A DNA stretch of 64,000 nucleotides from Escherichia coli (GTDB lineage Bacteria > Pseudomonadota > Gammaproteobacteria > Enterobacterales > Enterobacteriaceae). Numbering within the stretch: position 1 is the stretch's first letter; each line of letters opens with the position of its first letter. The notes below the pieces were generated by a model. It was not told the DNA's origin, did no database searches, and was given only the letters and a program-made list of their open reading frames with translations. Location of the stretch: NCBI RefSeq assembly GCF_003334335.1, contig NZ_QOWQ01000019.1; one strand, written 5' to 3'. Positions 24,255 to 24,437 of the stretch are shown one piece after another. The position numbers and the translations under genes were made by a program.

Positions 24255-24437
24255 ATGAAAAATGTACTGATTCTTGGTGCTGGCGGTCAGATAGCCCGCC
24301 ATGTGATTAATCAACTGGCAGATAAGCAAACCATTAAACAAACTTTATTTGCCCGTCAGCCAGCAAAAATCCACAAACCCTATCCAACTAATAAAATGCA
24401 AACAACTTCCGGCAAAAAAGTGATACAAGATCGATGA
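24255..24437 (+). pseudogene. ymjC: N-terminal remnant of an NAD(P)-binding (NmrA/SDR-like) protein; probably ymjC
   Basis: 60-aa ORF MKNVLILGAGGQIARHVINQLADK... carries a Rossmann GxGxxG motif but stops after 60 codons. Confidence 0.5.

Follow-up and report, generated by a model that had tools for sequence, protein, structure and literature searches.

A repeated element upstream of mppA and mpaA in Escherichia coli probably stems from one divergent promoter region split by a foreign gene block

Why do the murein-tripeptide genes mppA (20277–21890, minus strand) and mpaA (24519–25247, plus strand) of Escherichia coli, separated by a regulator gene and its neighbors, have a sequence of about 33 bp in common in their upstream regions? 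The initial annotation of the locus offered two answers: a shared cis element for the coregulation of the two genes, for example by the adjacent LysR-family regulator PgrR, or the footprint of an old local duplication. We studied the question in a window of 64,000 nucleotides (the whole stretch of DNA analyzed), in complete E. coli genomes, and at the corresponding loci of other genera. The gene names of the initial annotation proved correct, as the window is E. coli K-12; the genes around the repeat are ynaI, mppA, pgrR, ycjY, the remnants ymjD' and ymjC', mpaA, ycjG, tpx, and tyrR, which is the K-12 order reversed.

Results

Copy Number and Extent of the Repeat

The cores of the two copies lie at 21948–21980 (copy 1) and 24394–24426 (copy 2), both on the plus strand, and are identical at 29 of 33 positions; these coordinates and this identity had been given in the initial annotation and were recovered in the window. 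The distances held as well, the core of copy 1 being 58 nt from the ATG of mppA (21890) and that of copy 2 being 93 nt from the ATG of mpaA (24519). With a repeat search and alignment to the element of other genera, where it occurs once, the copies extend to 21943–21984 and 24389–24430, giving a direct pair of 42 nt that is 83% identical (35/42), 2446 bp apart, and the longest repeat within the 9-kb neighborhood (19000–28000). Copy 1 remains beside mppA, and the left junction of an inserted block falls at its right end; copy 2 remains beside mpaA and continues into the ancestral mpaA-side spacer.

The element is found twice in the 64-kb window. A 30-mer with its two central variable bases masked matched 28 of 28 positions at two sites only, the expectation from 100 shuffles being 0, and allowing up to three mismatches yielded no further site for the 17-mer. 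The initial annotation had named a common dispersed repeat with many genomic copies as a finding that would speak against a specific role. The genome-wide search gave another picture: a 61-bp probe around copy 1 matched in 5,419 of the 5,426 complete E. coli genomes, and the median number of sites per genome was two. As the median is only two, the element is a locus-specific pair and not a dispersed repeat of the REP, ERIC, or MITE-like kind. Folding gave no significant hairpin at the element on either strand (z-scores from −0.8 to +1.0), and Rfam had no match in the element region. Elsewhere in the window, Rfam placed the small RNA genes MicC, FnrS, and McaS at 2138–2258, 7070–7187, and 10565–10660, all above the gathering scores and unrelated to the repeat.

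The Undivided Spacer in Other Genera

We reached the mpaA neighborhoods of other genera through MpaA homologues, and the relatives of the insert through YcjY homologues and contigs. The genes mppA and mpaA lie side by side and are transcribed divergently in Citrobacter, Enterobacter, Klebsiella, Cronobacter, Pantoea, and Salmonella, with spacers of 184, 185, 189, 249, 156, and 189 bp, respectively, and in none of these six genera does pgrR, ycjY, or ymjC lie between them. According to the alignment, each spacer has one copy of the element in its middle (the Citrobacter version is GGAAATGCAATTAACTTCCGACAAGAAAGTGATA); in K-12, the sequence next to mppA corresponds to the left portion of the spacer and the element, and that next to mpaA corresponds to the element and the right portion. 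Three blocks of the spacer are conserved across the genera: GAAATGCAA, (G/T)TGAT, and GTAATTATTTGT. The opposite orientation of the two copies relative to their genes, which the initial annotation had pointed out, is confirmed and is required of any piece of one divergent spacer.

The lengths agree with this arrangement. The distance from the ATG of mppA to the end of copy 1 is 94 bp and that from the start of copy 2 to the ATG of mpaA is 130 bp; counting the 42-nt element once, 94 + 130 − 42 = 182 bp, which is the length of the uninterrupted spacer in strain 201609 and in 166 E. coli genomes. In strain 201609, the single element keeps 58 nt to mppA and 93 nt to mpaA, as the two K-12 copies do with their respective genes. 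The locus thus has the marks by which a target duplication is recognized: the insert lies between direct repeats, and the uninterrupted site of relatives has a single copy.

Content and Provenance of the Insert

The block between the copies, which in its reduced K-12 form covers 21985–24388, is absent from this position in the other genera; in most E. coli it occupies 2.4–4 kb of the mppA–mpaA spacer with the element on both sides. Its genes are pgrR (ycjZ; 22227–23126, minus strand), coding for the LysR-family regulator, and ycjY (23264–24184, plus strand), coding for an alpha/beta hydrolase. These are followed on the plus strand by ymjD' (24184–24249), the first 18 codons of a second hydrolase gene that is full length and frameshifted in O157:H7, and by ymjC' (24255–24392), the first 46 codons of a gene for a 212-aa SDR oxidoreductase. 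Mapping the PGAP annotation of O157:H7 to the window further located a queH fragment of ∼25 codons at 22055–22129 (minus strand), between copy 1 and the 3' end of pgrR. The annotations of some strains describe this relic of the donor as an internal piece of the epoxyqueuosine reductase QueH.

The closest relatives of YcjY outside E. coli share 80–87% amino acid identity with it and are named from Pluralibacter, Rhizobium, Mesorhizobium, Agrobacterium, and Burkholderia. In the loci that we read (Pluralibacter and two metagenomic or genomic contigs), the module occupies unrelated positions and never adjoins mpaA. A divergent LysR gene is always found beside the ycjY homologue, usually together with a paralogous second hydrolase (loci L012, L013, L020, and L022). 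The LysR gene and the two hydrolases look like a widely transferred three-gene module. Because the close relatives of YcjY are found in unrelated loci and the insert contains a queH fragment, we consider the block foreign and horizontally acquired. Searches for inverted repeats at the ends of the insert found none, and no transposase, integrase, recombinase, or other mobility gene was seen, whether inside the block or beside it, and this holds for the fullest form (O157:H7) too.

Variation within E. coli

The regulator gene pgrR is present in 5243 of 5426 E. coli genomes, and the state with two copies of the element includes K-12, BL21, O157:H7, and ATCC 25922, which belong to phylogroups A (K-12 and BL21), E (O157:H7), and B2 (ATCC 25922). 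The fullest form is that of O157:H7, where the copies are 3990 bp apart and the order is copy 1, queH fragment, pgrR, ycjY, the frameshifted second hydrolase, an intact ymjC, a 165-bp spacer holding a terminator-like hairpin, and copy 2. In strain 18KM2445 and similar strains, most of the second hydrolase is deleted and its first 18 codons are left as ymjD'. The genomes of the K-12 type have a further deletion of 665 bp (3723–4387 of locus L015), running from codon 46 of ymjC to 1–2 nt before the core of copy 2 and joining at 24392/24393. Lost with it are the 3' part of ymjC and the hairpin ATCGTACTG...CAGTACGAT TTATT, which separates ymjC from mpaA in strains of the O157 and 18KM2445 types, and the new junction creates a −10-like TAAAAT (24392–24397). 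Copy 2 itself varies, with a G to A change in O157 and an A to G change in 18KM2445.

The 665-bp deletion explains why an open reading frame of the ymjC region reads through copy 2, an accident confined to the K-12 form. As the ymjC homology stops at 24392, immediately before copy 2, the repeat looked like a rearrangement junction. The initial annotation had put the mpaA-side copy inside the ymjC remnant, which is incorrect: the homology to the NAD-dependent dehydratase reported by PGAP ends at 24392, ahead of copy 2, and in strains with an intact ymjC, copy 2 is 165 bp 3' of the stop codon and outside the gene. The reported cotranscription of ycjY-ymjD-ymjC-mpaA under PgrR may be specific to the allele with the 665-bp deletion.

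Uninterrupted spacers, lacking pgrR at the locus and having one element copy, were found in 174 E. coli genomes. In 166 of the 174, the left flank of copy 1 is joined to the variants of copy 2 as an exact hybrid; among the matches listed, 40 of 40 are identical to the spacer of strain 201609, and the strain names include ST648, which belongs to phylogroup F. The hybrid fits a crossover in the 17-nt identical block and fits a preinsertion allele equally well. As the insert occurs in groups A, E, and B2, secondary loss is favored for these 166 genomes.

An uninterrupted spacer of another type, named here after strain MB53, was present in 8 of the 5,426 genomes, all eight being identical over a 141-bp probe that spans the element and the mpaA-side spacer and reaches into the first codons of mpaA. 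Its mppA side is identical to the standard sequence (72/72) and its mpaA side (2573–2682 of locus L019) matches it at 84 of 110 positions (76%), about as far away as Citrobacter. In MB53, the one genome of the eight whose flanks were examined, these are K-12-like with a divergence of 0.4–1%. The simplest reading is that the tract is a recent short import from a relative and that the crossovers fell in the two longest of the conserved blocks; a metagenome scan for the tract returned no match. One further locus (L023) was considered as coming from another species and rejected, as it belongs to an error-ridden E. coli assembly with 98% identity.

Mapped and Predicted Promoters

Published data place a transcription start site of mpaA at position 1388705 of U00096.2 (minus strand), with 20 reads in one study (PMC3415461, supplementary file 2) and 37 reads in another (PMC3923258, supplementary files 6 and 7), the latter giving mpaA alone as the transcription unit; the sigma column reads "S" (PMC3415461; PMC3923258). 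The site maps to 24436 in the window, 10 nt past the core of copy 2, and the published string from −50 to +1 equals 24386–24436, with copy 2 covering −42 to −10. The promoter has an extended −10-like sequence, TGaTACAAG, at 24421–24429 within copy 2 (plus strand), with TG at −15/−14 and TACAAG at −12 to −7. The block (G/T)TGAT is kept in Citrobacter, Salmonella, Enterobacter, and the MB53 allele, and Klebsiella has GTTGAC. At the position of the mpaA −10 hexamer, copy 1 reads CAAAGG (CACAGG in O157), in contrast to TACAAG in copy 2, and no start site is listed at the copy 1 equivalent of 24436 (PMC3923258). The supplement of a Cappable-seq study had no matching coordinates.

For mppA, a consensus scan together with cross-genus conservation predicts a sigma-70 promoter on the minus strand at 21927–21956. 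Its −35 hexamer TTGCAT (ATGCAA on the plus strand, 21950–21955) lies inside the left 17-mer of copy 1 and is followed, after a spacer of 17 nt, by the −10 hexamer AATAAT (21927–21932); the scan itself read the promoter as TTTGCA-18-AATAAT. The −35 and −10 regions fall in GAAATGCAA and GTAATTATTTGT, the stretches of the spacer that are best conserved when the genera are compared. Neither the PMC3415461 nor the PMC3923258 dataset lists a start site for mppA close to this promoter, which leaves the role of copy 1 as a prediction.

We read the element as the overlapping core of two back-to-back promoters, an interpretation that draws on the published mpaA start site, the consensus matches, and the conservation. 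It is functional DNA, of which the two copies seem to employ different halves: the predicted −35 of mppA is in copy 1 and the core promoter of mpaA in copy 2. As in other divergent promoters of this kind, the genes are functionally linked and the promoter elements lie within a few tens of base pairs of each other; the predicted mppA −35 overlaps the −35 region of mpaA, and the distance from the predicted start of mppA to the mapped start of mpaA is ∼70 bp. Unlike in ordinary divergent promoters, the pair is split by an insert in most E. coli, each gene keeping its own copy of the overlap.

Two further blocks of the ancestral spacer, ATTTGATAATCC and TTTGCACAACACTGC, lie outside the repeat in the leader of mpaA (24455–24489, plus strand), at +20 to +54 from the start site. 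Both are strongly conserved from E. coli to Klebsiella, TTTGCACAACACTGC also in Cronobacter. They could form a second promoter (TTGATA-17-AACACT) or an operator; the start-site dataset read had no site downstream of them, and the leader gave no conserved RNA structure. A sigma-E promoter in the element was considered and rejected, a by-eye comparison with the sigma-E consensus giving a weak match.

Relation to PgrR

Comparison with published PgrR binding data had been proposed in the initial annotation. In PMC5934670, the genomic SELEX target of PgrR is the ycjY/ycjZ spacer, and its peak is at neither copy of the element; the regulon listed there is ycjG, ycjXF-tyrR, and ycjY-ymjDC-mpaA, without mppA. 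The target corresponds to 23127–23263 in the window, leaving the element ∼1.15 kb away on each side. The holoenzyme SELEX peaks of RpoD, RpoE, and RpoH in this area are also assigned to the ycjY/ycjZ spacer. Within that spacer, GGTCTAATCA occurs as two direct 10-bp copies (23166–23175 and 23184–23193), 18 bp apart and beside AT-rich dyads, and by sequence these repeats are the obvious candidates for the PgrR operator. The element has no similarity to the pgrR–ycjY spacer and no repeat family links the two, and it occurs without pgrR at the locus in the six other genera and in the 174 E. coli genomes.

As the element predates pgrR at the locus, the SELEX site is elsewhere, and there is no sequence likeness, a role as PgrR operator is unsupported: the element is in all likelihood an evolutionary scar and not a PgrR operator. 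The idea of an old local duplication was thus essentially right, the element being single in undivided spacers and flanking a block elsewhere, whereas the proposal of a shared operator, for PgrR or otherwise, found no support.

A CRP site tabled under ycjZ/mppA in a ChIP-seq study of ETEC H10407 (PMC4287617) was also considered and set aside. Its sequence, CGTGAACCGGGTCACA, matches the window at 11710–11725, and as this is ∼10 kb from mppA, the label does not fit K-12. CRP-like half-sites were absent across the ynaI–tpx stretch, both copies included (locus L001).

Discussion

The 33-bp element is probably the middle part of a once-single divergent promoter region of mppA and mpaA that was duplicated when a foreign block was inserted. 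The sequence of events would be as follows. A block of ∼4 kb, with the queH fragment, pgrR, ycjY, the paralogous hydrolase, and ymjC, would have entered the 182-bp spacer by horizontal transfer. The split from Salmonella and Citrobacter would already have occurred, and the diversification of E. coli would have been still to come or in its early stages, a timing that derives from comparing E. coli with distant genera only. At least 30 bp, and up to ∼42 bp, of the target is present on both sides of the insert, which would have allowed it to land without destroying either promoter; copy 1 would still serve mppA and copy 2 would still serve mpaA. The half not needed in each copy would then have been free to drift, and we infer that copy 1 lost the −10 element of mpaA in this way. 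Later deletions would have trimmed the insert to its K-12 form. Recombination between the two copies may have taken place as well, as the spacer of the 166 genomes has the sequence that a crossover within the 17-nt identical block would leave.

Target-site duplications left by IS elements, transposons, casposons, and CRISPR spacer integration likewise consist of direct repeats of host sequence around an insert; in those systems, too, the empty site has a single copy, and the insert plus one repeat explains the difference in length. Such duplications typically measure 2–15 bp and result from the action of a transposase or integrase on the defined ends of an element. The duplication between mppA and mpaA differs in being at least 30 bp long and in enclosing a block with no terminal inverted repeats and no mobility gene. 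Where transposase, integrase, and terminal inverted repeats are all missing, a target duplication of at least 30 bp does not fit any standard insertion mechanism, and this counts against our preferred explanation. The spacers of the MB53 type (8 genomes, mpaA side at 76%) likewise leave room for a more complex history.

Three other explanations were weighed against this one. We regard it as very unlikely that the copies are a shared operator at which a single factor, PgrR or another, binds to coregulate mppA and mpaA. Such an operator would suit two genes whose products act on murein tripeptide, and it would explain why the undivided spacer keeps the element from genus to genus and why the 17-mer and an 11-mer are intact in both K-12 copies; but the promoter hexamers and the mapped start site already account for the conservation, copy 2 varies within E. 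coli (O157 and 18KM2445), and the binding data, the age of the element, and the comparisons with the pgrR–ycjY spacer and with CRP half-sites all speak against it.

Direct repeats around a foreign block and an apparently precise empty site in 166 genomes are also what one would see if the copies were attL/attR-type cores, produced by site-specific or Campbell-type integration of a circular element that brought its own copy. This is very improbable: even the fullest form has no integrase or recombinase in or beside the block, and the homology of each copy to the ancestral spacer runs its full length, instead of being limited to a short core with unrelated arms. Identity resumes past two mismatches, both copies match the Citrobacter and Enterobacter blocks, and in the gene tables of the unrelated loci where the module is found elsewhere no copy of the element was noted. 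There is just as slight a chance that the two copies come from two lineages, copy 2 having arrived with the mpaA-side spacer and the insert from a related donor, copy 1 being the recipient's own, and the MB53 type preserving the original allele. The contrast between the two sides of the MB53-type spacer (84/110 and 72/72), with divergence beginning inside the element, is as this scenario predicts. It would, however, need two independent junction events, and among the loci read, no genome outside E. coli was found with the module beside mpaA. The MB53-type allele is also restricted to the 8 genomes; all eight are identical and the MB53 flanks are K-12-like, a pattern that fits a recent short import into a single lineage and for which we rank it low as the native allele.

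Returning to a duplication at insertion, we would suggest tentatively, while doubting it somewhat ourselves, that it was more than a passive scar: the insertion may have been survivable only with the overlap duplicated, the copies may since have been under selection as two promoters, and the pair may be a substrate for excision. If the copies do act in excision, precise loss of the pgrR islet would be open to whole lineages, of which the 166 empty-site genomes would be examples. The description of PgrR as a "peptidoglycan recycling regulator" would then in part be an accident of where the islet landed and of the 665-bp loss of the ymjC terminator in K-12.

The preferred explanation would account for an oddity of K-12, in which the murein-tripeptide genes look separate and under independent control, yet form one divergent promoter pair in nearly all other enterobacteria examined. 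On this account, pgrR, ycjY, ymjD, and ymjC form a foreign islet in decay and did not belong to the recycling locus from the outset, which calls for caution in interpreting the PgrR regulon and in transferring it to other species. It further provides testable predictions of which promoter serves mppA and which serves mpaA, together with natural alleles in full, trimmed, empty, and replaced states. The kind of event is already known and ordinary; the instance is new and well documented, and it does not amount to a new regulatory system.

As with other eroding genomic islets, the distribution of the block is patchy, with loss in some lineages, and its erosion can be ordered from the O157 type through loss of the second hydrolase to loss of the 3' part of ymjC. 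It departs from usual islets in having landed in a promoter region, not at a tRNA gene or between convergent genes, and in that its resident regulator, PgrR, controls the host neighbor mpaA in K-12 according to published work. A separate rearrangement was seen in strain MDR_56 (3144–6130 of locus L018), where an insertion of IS421 (IS4-like) accompanies the loss of the 5' end of mppA, copy 1, and the pgrR–ymjC block, and where copy 2 and mpaA are retained.
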